Source of the DNA: a virus
Strand: one strand, 5' to 3'
DNA: 50,463 bases
UHGV virus genome: UHGV-1368742
Of this stretch, positions 23,679 through 48,222 are shown in pieces. The notes beneath the pieces were generated by a model. It saw only the letters and a list, made by a program, of their open reading frames with translations. It made no database searches and was not told where the DNA came from. The translations under genes and the position numbers were made by a program. Every line of letters starts with the position of its first letter. The first letter of the stretch is position 1.

Positions 23679-25691
23679 CTAATTAATTCCCCATCTATCT
23701 CCATTTATTATAATTTTATTGTTTTGAGCTAATAAACTATTCATAGCCACATTACATTCAACAAAATCCGATTGTTCATTTTTGGCTACAACAAAATCAA
23801 AAACGTTTTTTTTCGTAGAACCCTCTAAAAATATGCCATAAACAGAATATGCGCCGTCTGTTTCACCATCAATGATAATACCACTTAATTTGCAAAATGA
23901 AGAATTCAATATTTTTATATGTGCTGTGTCATATTCATTTACCTTTCCTGCATTATTCCAATCACTTTGGAATGATTCAATTAAACATCTTGACGTATTA
24001 TTTATAACCAACGCATTTCTATAATTCTGCTGCGCTGTACATCCTATCAGCGAATTATTAATACTTTCAACTAGATAACCAGCATTTTCATTGTTAGCCT
24101 TATTGCACAATCCCATTCTGCAATTTCTGACCACGTTATTGGCTGATTGCAAACATACACCCGACCACTGTATTTGAATCCCTACACACTCAATTATAAA
24201 ATTATCTGTACCTTGAATATAAATGGCATGTCTACTACAATCTTTTATATAAAGATTTTTTAAAAAAGAGCCTCTGCATTTTCCACCAATTCTCACACCA
24301 TATGTCACATTTTTTATATCACAATCCTTTATAATTCCATGCGTGTCATATCGTTCCAATTTTTCTTCGGATGTTGCTTGCAAATATACGCCAACGCATT
24401 TGCCACCACCATTAATCGATATGCTTTCTACAACGCAATCATATGAACCATCTTTACTTGAAACTACAGCCATCAACACATCAGTATTATCACCTACATA
24501 TTTAATTATTGTATTGTGTCTTTGTTCTCCTATAATTTTATGTTTTGATTGTAATAAAATAGTATCTGATACAACATACTCGCCATTTGGAAAATATACA
24601 ACATAGTTTGATTTAACCGCATTTTTTATAGCGATTGTATCATCTGTAATACCATCACCGACAGCGCCATAATTTTTTACATTTATAGGATAATATGATA
24701 TTTCGCTATCCTTAAAATAAATAAAACAATATTTAAGAAATTTAACACCACAGCACACTCTAATATAACCATTTGACGGTACGGTAAACAACCCATTTTT
24801 TGTTGCACCTCCCTTAACAACATTCACTGTATCAAATGTTTTCCAATCTTTATCAGTGTAAAAAGACAAAACTGCAATAGCTTCATCACCACCAATAAGA
24901 TTATACGCTATTATACTCCCAGCATTTACAGGTATAAAATTAGTGCTTTTATAATCACTAGCGTCTTCTGCCCATCCACTTTTAGAGGATATTAATTTGT
25001 TATTAATCAGCTCTTTTTTTAAATCAAAAAACCTCTTGCTGTAATAACTTGAATCTTCCTTTAATTGATTAACATCATTTGTCAACTCTGTATAATCACT
25101 TGGAATTGTCTCTATTACATCTTGTGCTTTCTTTTCAATTTCTGCTTTCTGTTCATTTGCAACTTTTAACAACTCTGCTTCTAACTGATTATAATAATCC
25201 TTTGCTACTTGCTCCTGTTCCTGTGTTCCATTTGCTTCTAGTCCCTCTAACACTATACCATTAGCTAGTGTTGTATTCCATTCATTTGTTATTGTTCCAT
25301 CTGATTTTGTTTTAATAGCACAAACAATAAAAGAAATAATTCCTTTATATGCTGTTACTTTTCTGCTCAATTCCCAACTGAATGTTACATATTTTTCTCC
25401 ATCTGCTGCTAGGTCTGTAACAATATATTTGTCTTTTCCTGTGTCCAAACCACTCGCATTCTGAAAAACAATTCTTAAAGACAGCTTGCTTAGGTCTATT
25501 CCATTACCAACAAACCTATTACAACTGAAATATTTTCTTTCACCTTTTTCATCACTCATAACACCGAATATTCTTTCTGTGTCTGGAATAATCATTGTTC
25601 TTGTATCTGCGTCTATCACTATTATATCATTTGTTTCTAATTCATTTACTGCCACTTCTGCCGCATTTAGCAATTCATCTACACTAGGCAC
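23679..25691 (-). CDS. tail spike / depolymerase-like protein with right-handed beta-helix (pectate-lyase fold)
   Basis: Motif YPINVKNYGAVGDGITDDTIAIKNAV...YFPNGEYVVSDTILLQS matches the Pectate_lyase_3 / beta-helix signature. Asn/Gly/Cys-rich repeats follow. Confidence 0.6.
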   Translation of the reverse strand: MPSVDELLNAAEVAVNELETNDIIVIDADTRTMIIPDTERIFGVMSDEKGERKYFSCNRFVGNGIDLSKLSLRIVFQNASGLDTGKDKYIVTDLAADGEKYVTFSWELSRKVTAYKGIISFIVCAIKTKSDGTITNEWNTTLANGIVLEGLEANGTQEQEQVAKDYYNQLEAELLKVANEQKAEIEKKAQDVIETIPSDYTELTNDVNQLKEDSSYYSKRFFDLKKELINNKLISSKSGWAEDASDYKSTNFIPVNAGSIIAYNLIGGDEAIAVLSFYTDKDWKTFDTVNVVKGGATKNGLFTVPSNGYIRVCCGVKFLKYCFIYFKDSEISYYPINVKNYGAVGDGITDDTIAIKNAVKSNYVVYFPNGEYVVSDTILLQSKHKIIGEQRHNTIIKYVGDNTDVLMAVVSSKDGSYDCVVESISINGGGKCVGVYLQATSEEKLERYDTHGIIKDCDIKNVTYGVRIGGKCRGSFLKNLYIKDCSRHAIYIQGTDNFIIECVGIQIQWSGVCLQSANNVVRNCRMGLCNKANNENAGYLVESINNSLIGCTAQQNYRNALVINNTSRCLIESFQSDWNNAGKVNEYDTAHIKILNSSFCKLSGIIIDGETDGAYSVYGIFLEGSTKKNVFDFVVAKNEQSDFVECNVAMNSLLAQNNKIIINGDRWGIN

Positions 25692-26455: not shown

Positions 26456-27199
26456 CTACAAGTCTAGCATACCTATTAACTTCTTATAATTTAGAATACG
26501 AACTTTATATTTCCCTCTCACTGTCCAATTCTTCTGAATAGCCTGTGTTATATTTACTTTTCCATTGAAGAATTTCATCGCTTCTGTCTTTGAATAGAAA
26601 TAATACTTTTTATGAGTTTCAATATCAGTTATAACGATTGAATGGTACATGCATTTTTTATTTATCTTTAACACTCTTTCTAAATTTGTATCTTGTAACA
26701 AATAATATTCTTTGCACCTTGTATTCAACCCTCTAAATGTTCTATGCAATTCATCCTGTGCTTCTTTCATATTTGTAAAAGCTCCTACAAAATTCAATCT
26801 AAAATCGTACACATAACACTTTCCTTTTCCATTAGCACCCCACATTTTCTCTACAGTGTTTTCATTAGCCATGTTTTCTTTTTGTGTACACCATCTAAGA
26901 TTGTTTGGTTTGTTATTCAGTTTGTTCCCATCTATATTGTCAACAATGTTTCTTTCTTCTGTATGACCTTTTACAAATGCATAAGCCATTAATCTATGCA
27001 CAAAACATTTTTTCCATCTTCTTTCACCTTGTAGCTTCAATGCTACCTGTTTATATCCACTACTATTAAAACTCTGTACCAATTCCATTCCATCTTTTCC
27101 ATAGACATTTCCATATTTGTCTATTTCATATATATCTAATACTTGTTCATATTCTGTTGCTAATGTATTTACTTTCTTTCTCTCATACATCACTGGCAA
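26456..27199 (-). CDS. free-standing HNH homing endonuclease (HNH_3 family)
   Basis: VHRLMAYAFV...VDNIDGNKLNNKPNNLRWCTQKEN matches the HNH_3 motif. Annotated start is TTG; an ATG 9 nt downstream has a better RBS (AGGAGG). Confidence 0.7.
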   Translation of the reverse strand: MPVMYERKKVNTLATEYEQVLDIYEIDKYGNVYGKDGMELVQSFNSSGYKQVALKLQGERRWKKCFVHRLMAYAFVKGHTEERNIVDNIDGNKLNNKPNNLRWCTQKENMANENTVEKMWGANGKGKCYVYDFRLNFVGAFTNMKEAQDELHRTFRGLNTRCKEYYLLQDTNLERVLKINKKCMYHSIVITDIETHKKYYFYSKTEAMKFFNGKVNITQAIQKNWTVRGKYKVRILNYKKLIGMLDL

Positions 27200-27271: not shown

Positions 27272-27598
27272 TCAAACAGCCATACGCTGTAAGACTTCCG
27301 TTCTGGTCTGCATTTCAGCCTTTCCAGTTTTTTCTATCGCTTTATACACCCCTAGTCTTGTGGTATTTTTAAAGGTGTGAGCATCTATGTTAAATTCATC
27401 ATATATTACATTGCCTTTTGCATCCCTTGCATACGTTAAATCTTTCAATTCCTTTATTGTGTTTCTACACTTAGGAGAACATATAACCTTCTTAAAACGT
27501 TTTATCTTCTTTGTGTTCTGTAGTCTACTTCCCGCATACTTTTTACAAGCATACATATTGAATCCCTCTTGTCTATAATACTGTATTGACTTTGGTTC
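27272..27598 (-). CDS. terL: terminase large subunit, 3' exon (nuclease C-terminus)
   Basis: The frame is open from the stop at 27602 and reads [29 protein letters not shown]...[26 protein letters not shown]. This matches the TerL consensus ADSAEPKSI...AKKG.GS...C.N.I.EL..Y.W..DK.GN. The exact 5' boundary is ambiguous (27589 or 27598). Confidence 0.6.
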
Positions 27599-28439
27599 TA
27601 TTTATATTCTATGCGGTTCGCTACTCCGCACACGTTCTCTAATGAACTGCTGTAATTCTCATTACAGATTAGACTATATCTTAGCATTTCTGCTCCACAT
27701 GTTTCGGAACGCTTGTTCCTACTCTACTTACTTCCATTACATTTTCCATATCTAACATAATGTGTTTTCGATAGTCGTTGAATAGCTTGTTCTTTCGAAA
27801 GTTTTTTATATGAAAACAAATAACCTTTATGTTGTCTTTCTATTCCTCTACAGACATTTGCAACATGACTTCTATTAAATCCATCATAACTTGCTTCTGT
27901 TGTTGAAACATAGCTTCTAATATAATTCCCATCTAAATCATATTTATAAACTGTCTTCGCTAAACTCCAATTGTTATTCTCTCTAGGAGTTACCCAATTT
28001 AAGTTGTCTGCATTGTTATTCTTTCTATCTTCATCTTTATGATTGACATATTTTCTTTTTGACGTTCTCCCTTTTACAAACGCCAACGCTACTAACCTAT
28101 TAACACGCAAATAGTTTGTTTTATTATGTTTCGTTGTCAATGCTACGTTTAAATAACCGCCTGTCTTTTCATACTGCTTTAGCTCGTGTCTATTACTCAT
28201 ACTCACGTTCCCATGCTTATCTCTTAACGAAAATACTCTGCCATCATACGAAACATAATATCCATCATTTATATGTTCTAATCCTTTTATTTTATTTATT
28301 TGTTTTACTTTCATATATTTATTCCTCCGTTTACTTTAAACTACTACTGGTTGACTAATCCATTGAATTGTCACTCTATGGTATCAATGGCTCTAAAGTG
28401 TTTCCAGTATTCAATGTGGTTTTATGCGACCAAACCTTT
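27599..28439 (-). mobile_element. group I intron in terL carrying an HNH homing endonuclease gene (boundaries +/-10 nt)
   Basis: It separates TerL ...IYADAA(KG) from EPKSI.... It contains the conserved group I P7/J8-7-like element gcuAAGAUAUAGUCuaauc (plus strand 27640s-27660s). The 5' exon can end in U (GCU or GGU). Contains ORF 27724..28314. Confidence 0.5.
27724..28314 (-). CDS. intron-encoded HNH homing endonuclease (HNH_3 plus NUMOD-like C-terminus)
   Basis: LVALAFVKG...VNHKDEDRKNNNADNLNWVTPREN matches HNH_3. The C-terminus YDGFNRSHVANVCRGIERQHKGYLFSY is shared with the 40475..41569 N-domain. RBS GGAGGA. Confidence 0.75.
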   Translation of the reverse strand: MKVKQINKIKGLEHINDGYYVSYDGRVFSLRDKHGNVSMSNRHELKQYEKTGGYLNVALTTKHNKTNYLRVNRLVALAFVKGRTSKRKYVNHKDEDRKNNNADNLNWVTPRENNNWSLAKTVYKYDLDGNYIRSYVSTTEASYDGFNRSHVANVCRGIERQHKGYLFSYKKLSKEQAIQRLSKTHYVRYGKCNGSK

Positions 28440-29492
28440 AGCCGCATCCGCATATATTGGTTTATTACATCTTTCAGCTCTTTGTTTTGTTTTCCTTACT
28501 CCATCCAATAAAATAAATTTATTATCTGTTATATGGTTTCTGTATACTTCATCATAAATATAAAGTATTTTATTTTTATCATCTACTGCACAACTAATCA
28601 ACGCATTATAACTTGTTTCAAAACCAAAGTCCAAACCAAAGAAATGATATTTACTTGGTATGTTTGTTATTGTATTTGTAAATTGTTTTGCGTTTGTTGC
28701 AATCGTAAATTGTGGCAATACTCTTGTTCCACTTGCTCCGAATCTTCCCCACCTTGCAACCGTCCATAAATGCGGGTCATTTATCTTTAATCCATCCAAA
28801 CGTTTTATGTATGACACTGGCAAGAAAGGATTATCGTCTGCAATACTATGATGGTAATATACTCCATTCTTTTTGTTTACTAATGTTCTTCTCTTGTATA
28901 TCTCCTGTTCTTCCTGTATTACGTGTTCTTTTCCTTTATCATCTGTATGCGTAAAAAATGTGTTATATACCCAATTCTCTTTCCCTACTGGGTTTGTTGT
29001 CATAATAAAGTGTAATGACATTTTAGGCTCTCTGATACGTCCTAAAAGCTCTGTATAAGCGTCATAACGTATTTCACTACACTCTTCCATCCAAACGATA
29101 GAAACACCATGTATGGACTTTATTTTCTCTACATTGTCCATTCCTCTGAATATAATTCTGCTACCATTTGAAAATCTTACTTCCATTGGTGACATAACCG
29201 CTACAGCCTTTCCATTCTTCGGCAAGTGCTGATTAGGTAGCGATTCATCACTTAACATGTTCATCTTTTCTAGTATCTCTTTGAATAATGCAAAACACGA
29301 TTCTTTTATTGTTCCATATACCTGTCTTACTACCAAACAGGTTCTTCTTTCTTCTAGTAATTTTAATATGATTTTAAGTGCAACATGGTAACTCTTACCA
29401 CTACCATATCCACCGAATAAAAGGTACTGTTCATAATTCCAATCTGTTAAAAAAGTGGAGAATCTTTTTGAAACATCAATGTTTACATCCAT
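28440..29492 (-). CDS. terL: terminase large subunit, 5' exon (ATPase plus start of nuclease domain)
   Basis: Walker A LLFGGYGSGKS; nuclease start FGLDFGFETSYNALI; ends ...KPIYADAA. The likely start is MDVNIDVSKRF at 29492 (RBS AAAGGAG), not the upstream M at 29558. Confidence 0.85.
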
Positions 29493-29611
29493 GTTCTTTT
29501 CTCCTTTTGTTTTAGTTTGTTTGTAATAACAGAAAAGGACAGATACATCACTTTGCATCTGCCTTTCTGTTTGAATTAATTATACCATATTATATTTTGT
29601 TCGTCAATGCT

Positions 29612-29972: not shown

Positions 29973-30045
29973 TGGATTATATAGGACTCGAACCTATAAC
30001 TTGCCGCTTATGAGGCGGTTGCTCTAACCATTGAACTAATAATCC
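29973..30045 (-). tRNA. tRNA-Met (or Ile2), anticodon CAU
   Basis: Minus strand reads GGATTATTAGTTCAATGGTTAGAGCAACCGCCTCATAAGCGGCAAG...GGTTCGAGTCCTATATAATCCA. Cloverleaf with a GTTCGAGTC T-arm; the anticodon loop CUCAUAA carries CAU. No encoded CCA. Confidence 0.75.
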
Positions 30046-30134
30046 TTATGTGTTGCTTTCATGCGCTTGAACATTACTCACAACACTTTAGCAAGAAAAG
30101 AAATTTGGTATGCACACCTTTTACAGTGTGCAAC

Positions 30135-30205
30135 TGCCTAGGTTGGATTCGAACCAACACATTAAGGAGTCAAAGTCCTTTGCCTTACCGTTTGGCTACT
30201 AAGCA
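30135..30205 (-). tRNA. tRNA-Gln, anticodon UUG
   Basis: Acceptor stem UGCUUAG/CUAGGCA (one G.U pair); D-stem GCC/GGC. Anticodon stem AAGGA/UCCUU with loop CUUUGAC. T-arm GUUGG-UUCGAAU-CCAAC. Confidence 0.7.
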
Positions 30206-40119: not shown

Positions 40120-40362
40120 CTAGAATTCAATGTACGAACCACCTGCGAACATTACTGACGGTCTACTAAACTTATCACAATCAAAAGGATTTAATGATGG
40201 TGTGATAAAACATAAATCACCATAGCAATAATAATGTTCGCAATCTTCAACAAAAGTGTTCTCCCACTTAATAGAACTAATTGCCTTTTCAAAAAGGTTG
40301 TTGCTTGGTGTTGAACACTCATATGCTGTTTTAAGTTTTTCAGAAATCTGTAATTCTTTCAT
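40120..40362 (-). CDS. hypothetical protein
   Basis: 80-aa ORF. Confidence 0.3.
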   Translation of the reverse strand: MKELQISEKLKTAYECSTPSNNLFEKAISSIKWENTFVEDCEHYYCYGDLCFITPSLNPFDCDKFSRPSVMFAGGSYIEF

Positions 40363-40474
40363 TTGTTTGTCCTCCTAATGTGTTATCTCGTTTCTATGAT
40401 ATTATATTATCACAGTTTTAATGTTCTGTCAACAATCAGTTTAAACTTAAAAAAGGAACGCTTGTATATGTTCC

Positions 40475-41569
40475 CTAAAATGTTTCTTCTTTTAGTTTTT
40501 GTTTTGATTTTGGTAAAAATCCATACATTGCAATACAATAGCTATCTGCCATATCATCATTTATTTTACACGGTACTTTCTCACCGCCTATTTTAACGTT
40601 TATAACGCCTTTCTTTCCCCTACCCTTATATTCCTCAACTATATACTTTAGAAGTCCTTTCTGCTTCAAATAGAGGATTGTAGGATACTTGTTTGGATTT
40701 ATTCCATATTTATTCTCTTTTGGTTTACTTGTTCCAACAACTGCATTCTTCCAACTTTTTGTCTCAACAGAATACACTGGTATACTATATGGATATAACG
40801 TATCTATTATTTTTACAATTAACCCAGCTGTAGATATAATATAGTCATAACTTATATGCCCTTGCGAATATAGTCTTATTCTCTCTACTATACAGATTGT
40901 ATTTCGTTTGTCTAATCTATATTCTCTTACTATTTTTGTTATCTTGTTTTCTATGCAACGCCTTTTATCTGCATTTGTTATACAATTTTCAAAGTCAACA
41001 GACCATATATCAACTAATACCGAATCGCAAACTAATGTTATTCCTGTCCGATTATAGCTTTCATCAATTCCAATTACATATTTTTCATTTGTTACATATT
41101 TAAAACTATATCCTTTGTGTTGATTTTCTTCACCCCTACAACAAGCACCAACATGACCTTTATTAAATCCATCATATACTGTACTATTAACGCTTGTATA
41201 GAATTTTCGTTCACGTGTTATATTATTCGTTGCAATCAAATGCTTTTCAAAAGAATAACATATATTTGCCCACTGTGTACACCATTCCAAATTATCCGCA
41301 CGATTATTTAATGGGTTTTCATCAAGATGGTTTACAGTATCATAAAAATATGGATTATCAATAAATGTTTTTGCAACTAAAATATGTATTTGATATTTTT
41401 TTGTTTTTCCATCTTTTGAAAGTTTTACTAAGCATCTACCCTTTTTTGTTATTTCTGGCTTCAATATCTTCTCTTTTTTCTTTGAAATATTTTTTACATT
41501 TCCAAAATTTGATACTTGGTAGATTCCCTCATATCCTTTTATATCTTTCCACTCTTCTATTTGATACAT
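40475..41569 (-). CDS. in-frame fusion: N-terminal HNH_3 homing-endonuclease module plus C-terminal RuvC-like Holliday junction resolvase
   Basis: N-domain: EEWKDIKGYEGIYQVSNFGNVKN (NUMOD4-like); IHILVAKTF...VNHLDENPLNNRADNLEWCTQWAN (HNH_3); YDGFNKGHVGACCRGEENQHKGYSFKY. C-domain: YVIGIDESYNRTGITLVCDS...NDDMADSYCIAMYG (RuvC-type). No start or stop codon between them. Confidence 0.65.
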   Translation of the reverse strand: MYQIEEWKDIKGYEGIYQVSNFGNVKNISKKKEKILKPEITKKGRCLVKLSKDGKTKKYQIHILVAKTFIDNPYFYDTVNHLDENPLNNRADNLEWCTQWANICYSFEKHLIATNNITRERKFYTSVNSTVYDGFNKGHVGACCRGEENQHKGYSFKYVTNEKYVIGIDESYNRTGITLVCDSVLVDIWSVDFENCITNADKRRCIENKITKIVREYRLDKRNTICIVERIRLYSQGHISYDYIISTAGLIVKIIDTLYPYSIPVYSVETKSWKNAVVGTSKPKENKYGINPNKYPTILYLKQKGLLKYIVEEYKGRGKKGVINVKIGGEKVPCKINDDMADSYCIAMYGFLPKSKQKLKEETF

Positions 41570-42024
41570 TGTTCCCTTATATACCTTTCTTTTTTAGCTT
41601 TTGCAAGTTTCTTTCTGAATCTTATTTTATCTTCCTTTGCTACCATCTTTGTATCATTACATTCACAAAATTGAATTCTCTTTATATGTTCAGAAAACCA
41701 TGTTCTTTTTACAAGTTTAAATGTTTTAAGATTTTGGTTATATAAAAGATATTCGTTGCCTACTTTTCCACAATATAGAATTGTATATACATGTTCTTCT
41801 GATTTTAGTTTGAACAGTGTTCCAGCTTCTATTCTGTTGCAATCACTACATCCCATTGTTTTAAGTTCGCTGTCATTTTTAATACTTCCAACAATGTAAT
41901 CTCTTCTGCTAAACATACATCTGTATCTATATCTGTTTAATACACTTTTTTCTTTTTCAGCTTTGTTTAAATAGCAACATTCTGCACAACTTAGTTTCCT
42001 CATGCTTTCAGCCACTCCAAACAT
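41557..42024 (-). CDS. Cys-rich hypothetical protein
   Basis: CAECCY...CSDCNR...CECND. Confidence 0.35.
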   Translation of the reverse strand: MFGVAESMRKLSCAECCYLNKAEKEKSVLNRYRYRCMFSRRDYIVGSIKNDSELKTMGCSDCNRIEAGTLFKLKSEEHVYTILYCGKVGNEYLLYNQNLKTFKLVKRTWFSEHIKRIQFCECNDTKMVAKEDKIRFRKKLAKAKKERYIREQCIK

Positions 42025-43422: not shown

Positions 43423-44343
43423 TCACTCTAACATTTCCTTGTACTTTTTCTTGTGTTCATCCATGATTTCTTTTCTAACAGAATCAAGGTCTGCAAAATC
43501 AACAAAACCACGTTCATAGAATAATGGGATTTCACAGCTCTGCATTGGATTACAAACTTTACTTTTTACAACTTTAACTTTCATAATCATTCCTATACGC
43601 TCTTTCGCTTCTGTGTTGAATGGGTTATGATTAGGGATTTCAATATAGCCTTTTCTTGCTACTTGTATTCTCAGATTTGCACTGTGCTTTAATTTGTGAC
43701 CTCCAGGAGTCTGTATATTATCTCCAAAAGGCAATGCATTCATTTTATCTCTAATCTGATTAATAAATATGACTGTAGTTCCTGTTTGCTCTATTACGTC
43801 CTCAAGCGTTGGTAAATACTTATCCATTAATCTTGCTACTCCACCGATACGCATTTCCTGTTCACTGTCTGTGTTTACCGCTTTTCTGATTTTGTCTATA
43901 TCATCTTTTGGCTGTAAGGATGGTACACTATCAATTACTATTAATGGGATTCCCTCTTCTGCGAATCTTATCGCTCTGTTAAATGCTTTTTCTCCATATC
44001 TTGCTCTATATACAATCATCTGTTTTGGTCTGTTACCAAACAATCTTGCTCTTTCGCTATCGAACGAACCCTCAACAGGTTCAACCAAACACAGCTCATG
44101 CTGTGCGCACATTTGATATGCAAGTGTTGTCTTTCCAGCACTCTCCGCACCAAATATTTCTATAGTTCTTCCTTTGGGGATTCCACCACCAATAATGTTA
44201 TCCAAATCCGCTAACCCTGTACTCCATCTTGGAATCTTAAGTGCATCAGATTTACTTCCCAAACTGTAAACACTTCCTTTTTCCTTTTTGTCAATCTCCG
44301 ACATAAGTTTCAATATTCCGTCTTTATTCATTCCCTTACTCAT
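43423..44343 (-). CDS. RecA-family recombinase
   Basis: LDNIIGGGIPKGRTIEIFGAESAGKTTLAYQM matches the RecA Walker A / L1 region. Confidence 0.8.
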   Translation of the reverse strand: MSKGMNKDGILKLMSEIDKKEKGSVYSLGSKSDALKIPRWSTGLADLDNIIGGGIPKGRTIEIFGAESAGKTTLAYQMCAQHELCLVEPVEGSFDSERARLFGNRPKQMIVYRARYGEKAFNRAIRFAEEGIPLIVIDSVPSLQPKDDIDKIRKAVNTDSEQEMRIGGVARLMDKYLPTLEDVIEQTGTTVIFINQIRDKMNALPFGDNIQTPGGHKLKHSANLRIQVARKGYIEIPNHNPFNTEAKERIGMIMKVKVVKSKVCNPMQSCEIPLFYERGFVDFADLDSVRKEIMDEHKKKYKEMLE

Positions 44344-44813: not shown

Positions 44814-45263
44814 CTACCTCGCCATTAATGTACTATTATATTTTACAACTCTACTCATATATTTGTTTTTGCTAAATTCAAGTGCGCCTTGTTCTTTTAA
44901 AGTTTTAATTACCCCCTTTGTAACACTTCTTCCTTTGCATCTATCATAGAAGTCATCATATGATTTAAACACGCCCTTTCTGCGCTCGTTTTCAATGGTT
45001 TCTGCGGCTTTTTCTCCAATGCCCTTAATAATACTTAACCCTTGCTGTATAACGTCCTCTCCATCCATTTTACGCAATGAAGTTTTAGCTGAATAATTAA
45101 CATGAGGTAGCATAACCACAGCACCGTCTTTTACTGCAAACTGTGAATACTTAAATATATCTGCATCATTATCTGCATACTTCATTTTAACATACCAAAA
45201 CTGTGTTGGATAATGTACTTTATAATACATCTGATCTATTGATATTAAAGCGTATCCTGTTGA
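44814..45263 (-). CDS. dnaE: DnaE-type DNA polymerase III alpha, exon 3 (HhH region)
   Basis: STGYALISIDQMYYKVHYPTQFW corresponds to consensus (H)AAAYALIAYQTAYLKAHYP. HhH motif GLSIIKGIGEKAAETI. Listed ORF 44814..45359 includes 32 intron-derived codons at its 5' end. Confidence 0.7.
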   Translation of the reverse strand, partial: STGYALISIDQMYYKVHYPTQFWYVKMKYADNDADIFKYSQFAVKDGAVVMLPHVNYSAKTSLRKMDGEDVIQQGLSIIKGIGEKAAETIENERRKGVFKSYDDFYDRCKGRSVTKGVIKTLKEQGALEFSKNKYMSRVVKYNSTLMAR

Positions 45264-45608
45264 CAATACCTCACACACTTTCATGTGCCACACTACGCTA
45301 AATGTGTTAAGGTTTGGAGCACACCAAAGACATAAGCTTTCACCCTTAGTCCTCTCCATTATGCTCTCTGAATCTTCCCATGTTATATAGGCTTGACTGC
45401 TGATTACCTATTATTTACTACTTAGCACCTCACAATAAGGCTTTTATTTCAGCTTATAGTATCTGAATGATTTTTTCTGAATTTCTTCCGCATTCACACT
45501 TTATTTTTCAATATATGTTGTAGCTCATTCAGCTTTAAGGACTCCCAGCATTTTCGGAGATTTTCAGCACACACTTTACATGTATACTGCACTCAACCTT
45601 TTAAGTCT
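45264..45608 (-). mobile_element. ORF-less intron 2 in dnaE (group I candidate)
   Basis: 5' exon ends ...GFNKGH with CAU (U at the junction); intron ends ...GUAUUG; 3' exon starts UCA (STGYAL). The joined sequence FNKGH|STGYALIS matches the consensus FNKSHAAAYALI in length. No HEG inside. Confidence 0.5.
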
Positions 45609-46685
45609 ATGACCCTTATTAAAGCCATATATGAGCATGCTCGCCCATATGCTATTTGTTTGTTCTTTCGTCAATCCCTCTTGTCGGCATCCTTTAAAAA
45701 AGTCTTTCTTCATTTGTTCAATAATTGGAACGTATTCTGGTTTTGTTAGGTTTTCTGCTTTTTTCATAATCTTCAACATATCAAAACTCTGCTGTGGTGT
45801 TAAGTGTCCAACTTTCTGTGCTACTTCAACCGTTTGTTCTTGGTATAGCATTGTTCCATATGTTTCTTGCGTATATTTATAATATGGTGTATTCTTATCC
45901 ACATTATCTGAAAGTTTATTATGTGCATATGTTTCATGCATGTGCAACTGTAATGGTGCTGGTCTGTTTAGCGCATTCACCGCTATAATATCATTAACAC
46001 AATCACACTGAATCATATCAAGAATCTTTTTAGGTGCTGACTTCTCCATCTGGAATATTCCATCTGTTCTTCCCTCTCTGAATCCCTCTATAACTTCTTT
46101 GCTTTCTTCATCCTCTTCTGTGATTGTATGACCTGTTTTCTCTCTTAACTCACGCATTTCCGACATTGTTTTAAGTCCGAGCATATCAAACTTTACACAA
46201 TTAATATGCTCTAAATCATCTTTGTCAAAACAACTGCTTAGCGCTCCTGTCTTTCTATCTCGCATAATAATACAAGTATAGTCACTTATGTCTGTTCCAA
46301 CCACAGCAACACCAGCCGAATGTTTTCCTAAATATTTTATCTTTCCATACAGTTTTGAAAAATGTTTTATAATGTTATCATACTTCTCATTGAACTCTTC
46401 TGTTCTGTATCCATTCAGCAAATTACTCATGTTCAGTTCATCATCTACTATGAATCCCTTAATATATGACTTAATTTCTGCAATCACTTTTTTATTTTCA
46501 TCTGCTTCAAACCAATCAACATCTTTTGTTGTTTTTAGATTACAAACACTTGCTAAATCATTCACAAGATTGTCAACTCCATACATGCCATAAGAACAAA
46601 TCTGTATTGCTTTGTTTGGATATTTGTTTATAACATAATCAATTACTTCTTGTCTCCTGTCTCGTTCGAAATCTAAGTCAATATC
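45609..46685 (-). CDS. dnaE: DnaE-type DNA polymerase III alpha, exon 2 (palm/fingers)
   Basis: The frame is open from the TAG at 46688 and reads DIDLDFERDRRQEVIDYVINKYPNKAIQICSYGMYGV.... This matches the consensus DIDIDF..RR.EVI.YV..KYG. Contains YQEQTVEVA and ends GFNKGH. Confidence 0.75.
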
Positions 46686-47028
46686 CTACCTTAGTCGTTC
46701 GTTTCCAAACTATCAAGGCTAGACTATATCTTCCACTACTGTGGCATTCGCACTTCGGAATGGTGCTTATCTCCATCCCTACCCCTGTTACTCTCTTCAC
46801 AAGCTAGTCGTTACACCTTTATATACATCTGTATACACTTGGCACGGTATTCCCTCTATCTCACCATCACTGGTTTAGGGTTTCTTAGTCAGATTATTCG
46901 TCTATGGTCTATGCCCTATTATCCTGTTGTAACATTTCAATAAGGAGTCTTATTTTTCTGATACCGTTAGCATATTATAATAATACACACCATTAAACAA
47001 TGTTCACGAATGATGCCCAATTAAGTTT
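46686..47028 (-). mobile_element. ORF-less group I intron 1 in dnaE
   Basis: 5' exon ends ...KKSLP with CCU; intron ends ...AAGGUAG; 3' exon starts GAU AUU GAC (DIDLDF). Contains a P7-like pairing cgACUAGc ... AAGAUAUAGUCUAGcc, which shares the AAGAUAUAGUC element with the terL intron. Confidence 0.6.
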
Positions 47029-48222
47029 AGGCAATGACTTCTTTTCCTTACGCATAAATCTGCTAAAATCAAGGTTATATTTTATACTATCAACTTCTGT
47101 GATTCCTACTGCATAAGCTACAAGGCAATTACAAACAGAGCCTCTTCCCTTTCCTGTTTCAATTCCATTTTCTTTCGCCCATGTTATGTAGTCTCTAACA
47201 ATAAGGAAATAGTCTGCAAATCCGTGGTAATTAATTACTTCCAATTCCTCTTTGCATCTTTTCCAATATTTCTTGTTCCATTTGTTTCTGTTTTTCAATC
47301 CCTGTTTTGTTAATGTTTCAAGCTGTTTCGCTCCATTATCTGATATTTTAGGAAGTTCTAGCTCCAAACCATCTAATATGTTATCTTCTACTTTGTTATA
47401 TATTTCTTTCATGTTATCTGCAAATCTTTCTGCAAGTTCCATTGGTCTTTTAAACTTCTTTTTATAGATTTTTGCAAATCTTTCTGTTATCTCATACTCT
47501 GTAGGCATGTACCTTTCACTGTATGTTCTTTTTACATCCAATGTTGTTTTTCCAATTTCATGCATTTTACAATATGTATCGAAATCTTCCTTACTTCCAA
47601 AATGTGAGTCACTTGTTAGAATACATTTAATATGTTTTCTTCTTGCCATTCCCATAAGTTCATAGTCTGTTCTTTGTTGTGTACCCTGTTCATCTATTTT
47701 ATATGGCTGTATTTCAACATACAAATCTTCTTTAAATATTTCCTTGAACTTATCTAGCAAACGCTCTGCTGTGCTTCTATGACCATTTAAAATGGCTTGT
47801 GATGTTGCACTTGCTATACAAGCTGTTGTACATATAAGTCCATCTGAATATTTTTCAAGTAACTTAAAATCAACTATTGGTTTGTAATAGAATTGTTTTG
47901 TGTTCGCTTCTGTCATAATGTGACATAAATTTTTGTACCCTTGCAAATTCTTCACAAACAAATTCAGATGGTAGCTTTTTCTCTGTGGATTTTCTTTATT
48001 GAATTTTGGTTGAAAATATATTTCACATCCCATGACTGGTTTTATTCCAACTTCATTACACGCTTGGTAGTGTTTTATTAATCCACTAATAGAACCATGA
48101 TTACTTACACCTAACGCTCTATATCCTAATTCTTTTGCGTGTTTTGCTAACTGTTCTGGCTTACCAAATCCATCAAACAATGAATATTCATCATGTCTGT
48201 GGATATCCCAAAAATTTCCCAT
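47029..48222 (-). CDS. dnaE: DnaE-type DNA polymerase III alpha, exon 1 (PHP domain)
   Basis: MGNFWDIHRHDEYSLFDGFGKPEQLAKHAKELGYRALGVSNHGSISG matches the PHP-domain signature. Ends ...ITEVDSIKYNLDFSRFMRKEKKSLP, before the intron. Confidence 0.75.

Follow-up and report, generated by a model that had tools for sequence, protein, structure and literature searches.

The virus genome UHGV-1368742, a stretch of 50,463 nucleotides (nt) referred to as the window throughout, encodes on its minus strand a protein in which an HNH homing endonuclease of the I-HmuI type is fused in frame to a predicted RuvC-fold resolvase. Based on sequence comparison, we consider it probable that the endonuclease is part of an intron-less and intein-less homing cassette that sits in frame at the 5′ end of the resolvase gene, targets a conserved 5′ motif of that gene and replaces the gene end. 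It seems to be spreading between related gut phages. The HNH domain likely still drives transfers of the cassette as a selfish element. In the comparisons, the window sequence is labelled WIN, related loci are labelled L001 and so forth, and related proteins P0004 and so forth.

The fusion is encoded by one minus-strand open reading frame (ORF), 40475..41569, that begins with ATG and comprises 364 amino acids (aa) without internal stop or frameshift, as an earlier note on this DNA had claimed. It consists of a complete I-HmuI-type HNH endonuclease (residues 1-160), a linker of about five residues and a complete RuvC-fold resolvase (residues 165-364). Its parts are as follows.

40475..41569, minus strand: HNH endonuclease-RuvC-type resolvase ORF, 364 aa, stop codon at 40475-40477, the only RuvC copy in the window.
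41573..41578, minus strand: AAGGGA resembling a ribosome binding site (RBS), 3 nt 5′ of the ATG, read from the sequence and from comparison of 5′ ends.
41552..41569, minus strand: leader codons 1-6, MYQIEE, before the canonical HNH start (E)WKDIKGYEG.
41420..41557, minus strand: NUMOD4 DNA-binding module, residues 5-50 (Pfam PF07463, E = 1.9e-14).
41264..41347, minus strand: HNH (beta-beta-alpha-metal) nuclease motif, residues 75-102, VNHLDENPLNNRADNLEWCTQWAN (Pfam HNH_3 and I-HmuI alignment), with His81 at 41327-41329 and Asn102 at 41264-41266.
41099..41212, minus strand: I-HmuI-type NUMOD-like helix region, residues 120-157 (Pfam PF22083, E = 7.9e-4, sub-threshold).
41078..41095, minus strand: junction or linker VTNEKY, residues 159-164, from an alignment of fused, HNH-only and RuvC-only proteins.
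40478..41077, minus strand: RuvC-fold resolvase domain, residues 165-364, from fold match, PHROG matches and residue conservation.
41063-41065 (D169), 40883-40885 (E229) and 40544-40558 (D338, D339 and D342), minus strand: conserved acidic residues.

The N-terminal NUMOD4 plus HNH_3 module described in the earlier note was recovered by Pfam, with the HNH_3 match (residues 75-99) exactly at the gathering cut-off, and by the family profile, which matches I-HmuI (PDB 1u3e) over essentially its full chain (residues 2-171 of 174, E = 8e-37). The NUMOD-like helix region lies inside this profile match and represents the C-terminal DNA-binding part of the HNH module. Among PHROGs, HNH families match residues 1 to about 165 and RuvC-like resolvase families residues ~161-355 (phrog_159, E = 1.4e-7; phrog_1770, E = 5.9e-5). 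Free-standing HNH relatives (160-190 aa, at most 50% identity) terminate at GY.WKY plus 0-5 residues while stand-alone resolvases start M(xx)VVIGIDES, and the alignment shows the end of an HNH relative joined to the beginning of a resolvase through the linker of about five residues. The HNH module of the fusion has the full size of its free-standing relatives. No in-frame ATG, GTG or TTG is present in codons 140-175 and no second RuvC gene within the window, indicating that the resolvase can be made only as a fusion polypeptide.

An AlphaFold2 model based on a 90-sequence alignment has a mean pLDDT of 93.2 and a pTM of 0.81. In Foldseek comparisons of this model with the PDB, I-HmuI (1u3e) ranks first (E = 6e-14), and the RuvC structures 4ep4, 4ld0, 7xhj, 6lw3, 1hjr and 4ktw from T. 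thermophilus, Deinococcus, P. aeruginosa, E. coli and lactococcal phage bIL67 are matched with target-normalised TM-scores of 0.69-0.77 and a probability of 1.00. Fold comparison alone links the resolvase half to solved RuvC structures, as no sequence match to them was found at E <= 10. The Pfam RuvC family (PF02075) does not match the fusion protein and matches 5 of 43 relatives, with a best E of 2.3e-5. Both active sites are kept: H81, N88, N89, N93 and N102, which align to the I-HmuI motif, are present in all 16 fusions and at least 39 of 43 free-standing HNH relatives, and D169, E229, D338, D339 and D342 in 16/16 fused and 31/31 stand-alone resolvases. In resolvase numbering, D9, E69 and D182 are invariant and D178 nearly invariant in the family alignment; the mapping of these residues onto the RuvC catalytic acids comes from order and spacing, not from explicit superposition. 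By profile and motif, the endonuclease is assigned to the I-HmuI/NUMOD4-HNH family, and the C-terminal half, as modelled, to a divergent phage family of RuvC-fold resolvases. The complete RuvC-type resolvase expected from the earlier note is thus recovered through PHROG matches, model fold and acidic residues.

The fusion recurs in independent assemblies. Among the best 120 protein clusters, 15 are full-length fusions (362-381 aa, 49-95% identity) from ENA, Logan and JGI; 16 fusion proteins were aligned and DNA was compared at nine fused loci. At these nine loci the frame is kept although the junction DNA differs, with a different linker in L040. The junction DNA of the window is AAATATGTAACAAATGAAAAATATGTAATTGGAATTGATGAA, and L003 matches it exactly. 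Both halves are under purifying selection in a single frame. A sequencing or assembly error such as a homopolymer miscount that merged two genes is accordingly a vanishingly improbable explanation, even though a homopolymer run sits right at the junction and a 1-nt change would split the ORFs: at least nine loci share the fusion, their assemblies are independent and come from different studies, their junction DNA varies, with one locus identical to the window there, and selection extends over both halves in one frame. We also considered a cryptic frameshift, since one additional A in the A5 run at 41080-41084 gives two overlapping ORFs, an HNH ORF ending in KYVTNEKICNWN followed by a stop codon and a resolvase starting MKKYVIGIDES with exactly the stand-alone length of 204 aa. 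This candidate was rejected because L041 (AACGAAAAATAT) lacks the out-of-frame ATG, L040 lacks the A5 run and the frame is intact in 9/9 fused loci. The frameshift or sequencing error that the earlier note had named as a possible refutation is therefore not what splits or joins these domains.

The same overlapping ORFs raise the question of whether the fusion exists at the gene level only, the resolvase being freed by linker proteolysis or produced on its own through non-canonical internal initiation or frameshifting near the A-run at 41080-41084, so that the two nucleases would work independently. RuvC enzymes are dimeric and a 160-aa N-terminal appendage might interfere, and L002 shares both the out-of-frame ATG and the A5 run with the window. 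We nonetheless regard this explanation as quite improbable, given that the ATG is missing from L041 and the A5 run from L040, that the in-frame junction is universal in fused loci, and that neither a Shine-Dalgarno-like sequence before the junction nor an in-frame start in codons 140-175 is present. The out-of-frame ATG itself is a trivial by-product of [DN]-E codons.

Fusion is the rare state of this gene. At related IMG/VR loci, the fused state was found at 1 of 37 (L003), a rough frequency, while the other 36 carry a stand-alone resolvase of about 204 aa that begins 2-6 codons 5′ of VIGID. The N-terminal domain is thus absent from most resolvases of related phages, and the suggestion of the earlier note that a homing endonuclease was fused onto a resolvase gene agrees with the close relatives, which have the resolvase alone, and with the full-size HNH that abuts the resolvase start exactly. 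An exhaustive phmmer scan of 1.84 billion representatives returned one full-length fusion representative. Together with the single fused locus among 37 and the 15 of the best 120 clusters, this argues against a widespread fusion, the other outcome that had been named as speaking against the proposal. A megablast search of the region against 50,697 phage records gave no match, and tblastn identified only stand-alone resolvases of 31-54% identity in Clostridium phages CS266P1-4, Dulem virus 36 and Agathobaculum phages. L002, contig 13370 of Logan ERR3340832, encodes the fusion P0004 (70% identical) and belongs to a different phage, in which the gene has another position. As an intermediate state, we looked for a free-standing copy of the fused HNH and found none within 3-4 kb at any of 37 unfused loci.

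Independent HNH-RuvC fusions elsewhere were sought among longer proteins, and the ten candidates checked are tandem HNH-HNH proteins. The database proteins P0242-P0389 include many head-to-tail arrays of 2-6 NUMOD4/HNH modules with 300-966 aa. Because such arrays are numerous and all ten checked candidates are HNH-HNH proteins, in-frame fusion seems to be a recurrent habit of NUMOD4/HNH endonucleases. No description of an HNH-resolvase fusion was found in the full-text literature, the coverage of which is incomplete, so that this is absence of evidence only. Homing endonuclease genes at recombination boundaries have been described in a report that does not treat such fusions (PMC10448857).

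The 5′ ends of fused genes carry traces of the insertion. In six distinct fused loci, the start of a resolvase gene sits directly before the HNH. The relic in L042 reads ATG GTT GTA ATA GGA ACT GAA GAA (MVVIG..) followed by GAG TGG; blastn homology to unfused L001 covers the relic codons and then switches to the HNH of the window, and deleting GGAACTGAA from the relic yields ATA GAA GAG TGG as found in the window. Further relics are MDKVVIGIDE followed by RWKD in L044 (L044/L045), MNNVTVGIEE followed by RWED in L002 and MSKIVM in L043. In L040 and L046, the relic is a separate mini-ORF, M(G/S)KIVIGIDGG followed by a stop codon, that overlaps or abuts the HNH start. Relics comprise 5-10 codons, and their ends all lie no more than ~15 nt from the GID(E) codons; a second, complete copy of the relic motif (KYVIGIDES) is located 3′ of the HNH. 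For comparison, I-HmuI starts with MEWKDIKGYEG. The leader MYQIEE of the window is possibly a decayed resolvase start (ATG nnn nnn ATA G...), a reading that is unprovable in the window itself. The entry point of the element in the resolvase ORF is, we infer, the DNA for the N-terminal active-site strand, with the relic ends marking the break.

In unfused genes, the DNA around this motif shows unusually high conservation (..GTAATAGG.AT.GA..A.AGTTATACACGAACAGG..), and it differs in fused ones. The octamer GTAATAGG is present in 32 of 37 unfused loci and in none of nine fused junction copies (p = 2e-6), and the peptide following GID[EQ] is SYTRTG in 90/105 unfused and 1/16 fused proteins, the latter with nine variants (p = 4e-10). 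In phylogenetic terms, these counts are not independent, since all fused 5′ parts belong to a single group. Overall divergence of the RuvC 5′ region is alike within the two classes (0.57 among unfused, 0.62 among fused). This contrast would fit a recognition site that is mutated in element-bearing alleles, with the cassette copy as a putative cleavage-resistant version. The features that concern the cassette and its putative target are as follows.

40861..41077, minus strand: cassette-borne resolvase 5′ part, RuvC codons 1-57 to 1-72, from blastn and protein identity.
41042..41077, minus strand: cassette copy of the conserved resolvase 5′ motif, GTAATTGGAATTGATGAAAGCTATAATCGGACAGGA, which differs from the near-invariant stand-alone GTAATAGGAATTGATGAAAGTTATACACGAACAGGA.
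40674..41589: near-identical tract, 916 nt, one mismatch (41368) to IMG/VR contig L003.
L006 and L008: cassette-free resolvase 5′ end, GGGAGCATGGTTGTAATAGGAATTGATGAAAGTTATACACGAACTGGAATC, with the putative target around GTAATAGGAATTGATGAAAGT and the predicted nick or cut near GTAATAGGAATTGATGAA.

Comparison of fused and unfused loci places the breakpoints on both sides of the cassette. The upstream gene of unfused L006 and L008 is 88-89% identical to the window in blastn alignments up to 41570, the base before the ATG, and the stand-alone resolvases of these loci are preceded by the same upstream sequence as the AAGGGA region of the fusion. Blastn homology to L001, L004, L006 and L008 restarts at window positions 40905-40861, around resolvase codon 57-72. 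For the resolvase 5′ part in between, blastn detects no DNA homology to the resolvase genes of close unfused relatives. At the protein level, RuvC identity between the window and these relatives is 43-51% over the first 100 residues and 86-95% afterwards. We compared the RuvC parts of 16 fused and 100 unfused proteins. Over residues 1-70, each fused protein has another fused protein as its nearest relative (60-93% identity), and the best unfused match reaches 46-59%. For residues 100-200, fused and unfused proteins are intermixed, with mean identities of 0.71 among fused and 0.73 between fused and unfused proteins; WIN is here 94% identical to the unfused P0018. Because the nearest kin of the 5′ part are always fused and the 3′ half follows the resident lineage, the moving unit consists of the HNH and the first ~60-70 resolvase codons.

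The window and L003 share this unit in nearly identical form. Their flanks differ at 5-14 positions per 100 nt upstream and at 8 per 100 nt immediately downstream, while the 916-nt tract contains 1 mismatch, against ~70 that the flank rate of about 8% predicts by our own arithmetic. The tract starts 20 nt 5′ of the ATG and extends ~190-230 nt past the heterology boundary into the shared resolvase part. It is shaped like a co-conversion tract, which we read as probable recent gene conversion or transfer. Just 3′ of the fusion, window positions ~40134..40440, including an 80-aa ORF (40120..40362), are absent from the otherwise 93%-identical L003. In L042, the same cassette (92% nt identity) is found in another upstream context, a methyltransferase gene that is common to unfused L001, L004 and L005 (~92%). 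L046 and L040 are ~90% alike in flanks, 5′ junction and resolvase 3′ end and their cassette interiors cannot be aligned as DNA; sharing the frame and differing in the interior, they indicate two cassette subtypes exchanged within one framework.

The following course of events would account for these patterns. The cassette would comprise the complete I-HmuI-type HNH endonuclease, the short linker and its own first ~60-70 resolvase codons, and would borrow the RBS (AAGGGA, 41573-41578) and start region of the resident resolvase. Its product would be the single 364-aa polypeptide whose C-terminal 200 residues provide the only RuvC resolvase of the phage, presumably as an active enzyme. In mixed infections, the HNH would nick or cut cassette-free resolvase alleles at the VIGIDES-coding motif (..GTAATAGGAATTGATGAAAGTTATACACGAACAGG.. 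= VIGIDESYTRTG). Break repair would then copy the donor cassette, with a 3′ crossover in the conserved resolvase 3′ half and co-conversion of up to ~135 RuvC codons. The 5′ crossover would fall in the upstream gene where this is homologous, as in the window/L003 pair. Next to a different upstream gene, the 5′ joint may form by microhomology between RuvC ..ATT GAT GAA and HNH ..ATA GAA GAG and would leave the first 5-10 resolvase codons of the recipient as a relic before the HNH. Substitutions in the motif copy of the cassette would protect it from cleavage. Its own 5′ copy would restore a full resolvase, so that any clean deletion of the element would abolish resolvase expression. The gene has a Cas4-like exonuclease and a UvsX-like recombinase as neighbours in a recombination module; break-repair homing in T4 uses exonuclease- and UvsX-like functions and a resolvase, which these neighbours match (PMC2988022).

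Several points weigh against a homing cassette. Ordinary modular recombination of co-circulating phages could, with no endonuclease involved, give rise to mosaic boundaries as well as an identical tract, and the near-identical pair, window and L003, was found only once. No relic is recognisable in the window (MYQIEE) or in L041 (MDIEK), where leaders are too short or decayed. The fused and unfused loci were collected by peptide patterns of the window protein, which makes the frequencies rough. The proposed cleavage site, strand specificity and immunity are drawn from sequence patterns. The cassette copy of the motif retains the core GGAATTGATGAAAG of the putative target, and immunity is accordingly not obvious; since the target-site counts are also non-independent, immunity can only be put forward as a suggestion. 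Moreover, I-HmuI-type enzymes are known to nick intron-plus as well as intron-minus DNA.

Selection on the HNH part also bears on its role. Between WIN and L042, the HNH part shows 27 synonymous and 7 non-synonymous differences (dN/dS ~0.05), and the two RuvC parts have dN/dS values of 0.06-0.07. In distant pairs, pN is 0.13-0.21 for the HNH, at or below the 0.18-0.26 of RuvC, with pS at 0.7-0.99; because synonymous sites are saturated at this distance, only the close pair WIN/L042 and contrasts of pN with pS can be used. Purifying selection on the HNH is thus very strong and exceeds the usual expectation for a pure parasite, a further point against the homing cassette, as this constraint may indicate a function for the phage. 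It could mean that the protein is a domesticated two-nuclease enzyme in which the HNH is no longer, or never was, selfish and works with RuvC in phage DNA metabolism. Conceivably, the HNH would nick concatemers or branched DNA ahead of packaging, break down the DNA of the host or of competitors, or load the resolvase onto specific sites, and the patchy distribution would stem from the usual exchange of modules between mosaic phages. We consider domestication in this sense, including these roles and this account of the distribution, unlikely. Besides a dN/dS as low as that of the resolvase, it can draw on a junction and very short linker that are kept down to 49% identity, on a confidently modelled inter-domain arrangement (pTM 0.81, pLDDT ~97 over the junction), on the absence of any HNH-less 'empty' fused-type resolvase allele among 100 unfused proteins and on the position of the gene in the recombination module. 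An intron endonuclease has been reported to aid its phage by interfering with competitors (PMC11620839). Set against this, the HNH is missing from most close relatives (36 of 37 loci) and has the full length and the DNA-binding modules of an I-HmuI-type homing endonuclease. Displaced-start relics, together with insertion at the best-conserved coding motif, are classic signs of invasion by a homing endonuclease, and the identical tract stops within 20 nt of the 5′ edge of the cassette. A selfish element and a working partner of the resolvase are not mutually exclusive: given the strong purifying selection on the HNH, a fused selfish element and a working two-nuclease protein are compatible.

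The homing cassette resembles several known systems in part. I-HmuI, the intron-encoded HNH nicking homing endonuclease of phage SPO1, has the same domain order (NUMOD4, HNH, NUMOD-like helix) and the same motif residues, and free-standing members of the I-HmuI/NUMOD4-HNH_3 family (~160-190 aa) are of the same size as the fused module. In contrast, the fused HNH is neither encoded in an intron nor free-standing and runs without a stop into the product of its host gene. The position of I-HmuI Asp74 is occupied by Asn80 in the fusion, a predicted nuclease, and in most free-standing relatives. What characterizes I-HmuI-type mobility was found here as well, namely presence/absence polymorphism at a fixed site, co-conversion and two upstream contexts. 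RuvC resolvases, including that of bIL67 (PDB 4ktw), share the RNase-H-like fold and the D...E...D..D acidic pattern of the C-terminal half, which differs from bacterial RuvC by a ~40-residue insertion (190-208 aligned columns versus targets of 150-166 aa) and by the 164-aa nuclease domain at its N-terminus.

SegF, SegG and MobE of T-even phages are free-standing endonucleases that carry out 'intronless homing' with co-conversion (PMC2988022). As in these systems, a phage endonuclease gene without intron or intein lies beside a conserved presumed target, is accompanied by a co-converted stretch and uses the expression signals of the resident operon. Seg and Mob genes are, however, separate intergenic ORFs with cleavage sites hundreds of base pairs (bp) away, whereas the endonuclease described here lies inside its presumed target ORF, is fused to its product and has the 5′ end of that ORF duplicated, with the putative site at the insertion point.

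A closer likeness than Seg/Mob is provided by the WHO elements of the yeasts Torulaspora and Lachancea, in which an endonuclease gene is paired with an alternative version of one half of the essential gene FBA1, the half that is replaced on integration (PMC7282813; bioRxiv 10.64898/2026.08.13.744650). In both cases, the homing element is no intron and no intein, endonuclease and alternative gene end form a unit and the old end is left as a relic; in both, alleles that bear the element have a diversified target motif and subtypes displace one another. WHO elements encode LAGLIDADG/zinc-finger enzymes as separate genes downstream of FBA1 and replace the 3′ half. The fusion carries an HNH enzyme in one polypeptide with its target's product, replaces the 5′ end, leaves relics of 5-10 codons and has no sequence relationship to WHO. 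Joint movement and a relic are thus found and a separate LAGLIDADG/HO-related gene is not; the fusion is not a member of the WHO family, because enzyme class, gene end and organism differ and the endonuclease is fused to the product of its target. A tentative and rather doubtful idea is that it represents a phage counterpart of the WHO elements in which the endonuclease is tethered to the very resolvase by which break-repair recombination is brought to completion. Should the tether matter, the element would supply both the break-making and the junction-resolving step of its own homing, and RuvC dimerisation could pair two I-HmuI-type nickase domains into a double-strand cutter.

Inteins and in-frame intron ORFs likewise carry an endonuclease in the frame of the host gene, and their simple deletion would harm host gene expression. 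Unlike in inteins, the fused HNH is terminal rather than internal and nothing indicates its removal from the protein; no Hint/intein Pfam match was found in the fusion protein, and no folds other than HNH and RuvC are seen in the model. No ribozyme was detected around the fusion, as an Rfam scan of the window found two tRNAs only, and the ORF runs on into the host coding sequence without a break. Cas9 and IscB also combine an HNH and a RuvC-fold nuclease in one chain, a superficial resemblance: in those RNA-guided enzymes the HNH lies within a split RuvC, while the fusion has tandem domains with a complete N-terminal I-HmuI-type HNH and a junction-resolvase-like RuvC. No Cas9 or IscB structure is among the significant Foldseek matches of the model.

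Homing endonucleases are thought to persist only by means of self-splicing introns or inteins within genes, or by residing between genes, and the fusion points to another solution in phages. If our reading is correct, replacement of a gene end by the element's own resistant copy would be a third way to live in a gene, and 'gene-end replacement', so far seen in the yeast WHO elements, would extend to bacteriophages and to the HNH family. The fused and unfused alleles, relics and two cassette subtypes would offer a natural, sequence-defined system for questions of target choice (DNA for an active-site strand), avoidance of self-cleavage and displacement among subtypes. The compact and naturally tethered HNH-RuvC protein could also be of practical interest for its biochemistry. 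For annotation, the cassette would account for some gut-phage resolvases that are ~160 aa longer and have seemingly unrelated 5′ parts.

Two further HNH_3 ORFs are located near the large terminase, which is encoded in two minus-strand ORFs within 27272..29558. The HNH_3 ORF 27724..28314, also on the minus strand, lies between ORF 28422..29558, matching Terminase_3 and Terminase_3C positions 1-40, and ORF 27272..27556, matching Terminase_3C positions 76-145. This ORF had been called an intron-borne endonuclease in the earlier note; its location between the terminase parts stands, and no Rfam group I intron was found around it, either at the gathering score or at E <= 1. The terminase may contain an unrecognised intron, be a split gene or be made whole in some other way. 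A stretch at the end of the fused HNH had been described as nearly identical to the C-terminus of this ORF. The identity is 18 of 27 residues (37-39% overall), and because the ORF runs ~27 aa past the shared 27-aa stretch, the latter is not its C-terminus. The third HNH_3 ORF, 26456..27199 on the minus strand, encodes 247 aa including a NUMOD1. It is free-standing as claimed and follows the second terminase ORF closely on its downstream side; as a paralogue, it is only ~27% identical to the fused HNH.

Other genes of the window and its relatives are also interrupted or enlarged. The DNA polymerase (phrog_405) is distributed over three minus-strand ORFs, 46993..48222, 45576..46586 and 44814..45359, which match profile positions 43-443, 499-795 and 796-937 and are separated by gaps of 406 and 216 nt, which suggests further mobile insertions or a gene in pieces. 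In L043, the polymerase is one 907-aa ORF, and in L040 it shows a faint LAGLIDADG hint. The UvsX/RecA-like recombinase comprises 306 aa in the window (43423..44343) and 625 aa in L001 (1..1802) and L041 (1..1462), where its length and two separate RecA_N matches point to an insertion, perhaps an intein or endonuclease. Two tRNA genes identified with Rfam, 29973..30045 and 30134..30205 on the minus strand, lie upstream of the terminase region. Finally, the product of 23679..25691 on the minus strand has 670 aa and a right-handed beta-helix resembling that of pectate lyases, and is probably a tail-spike depolymerase.

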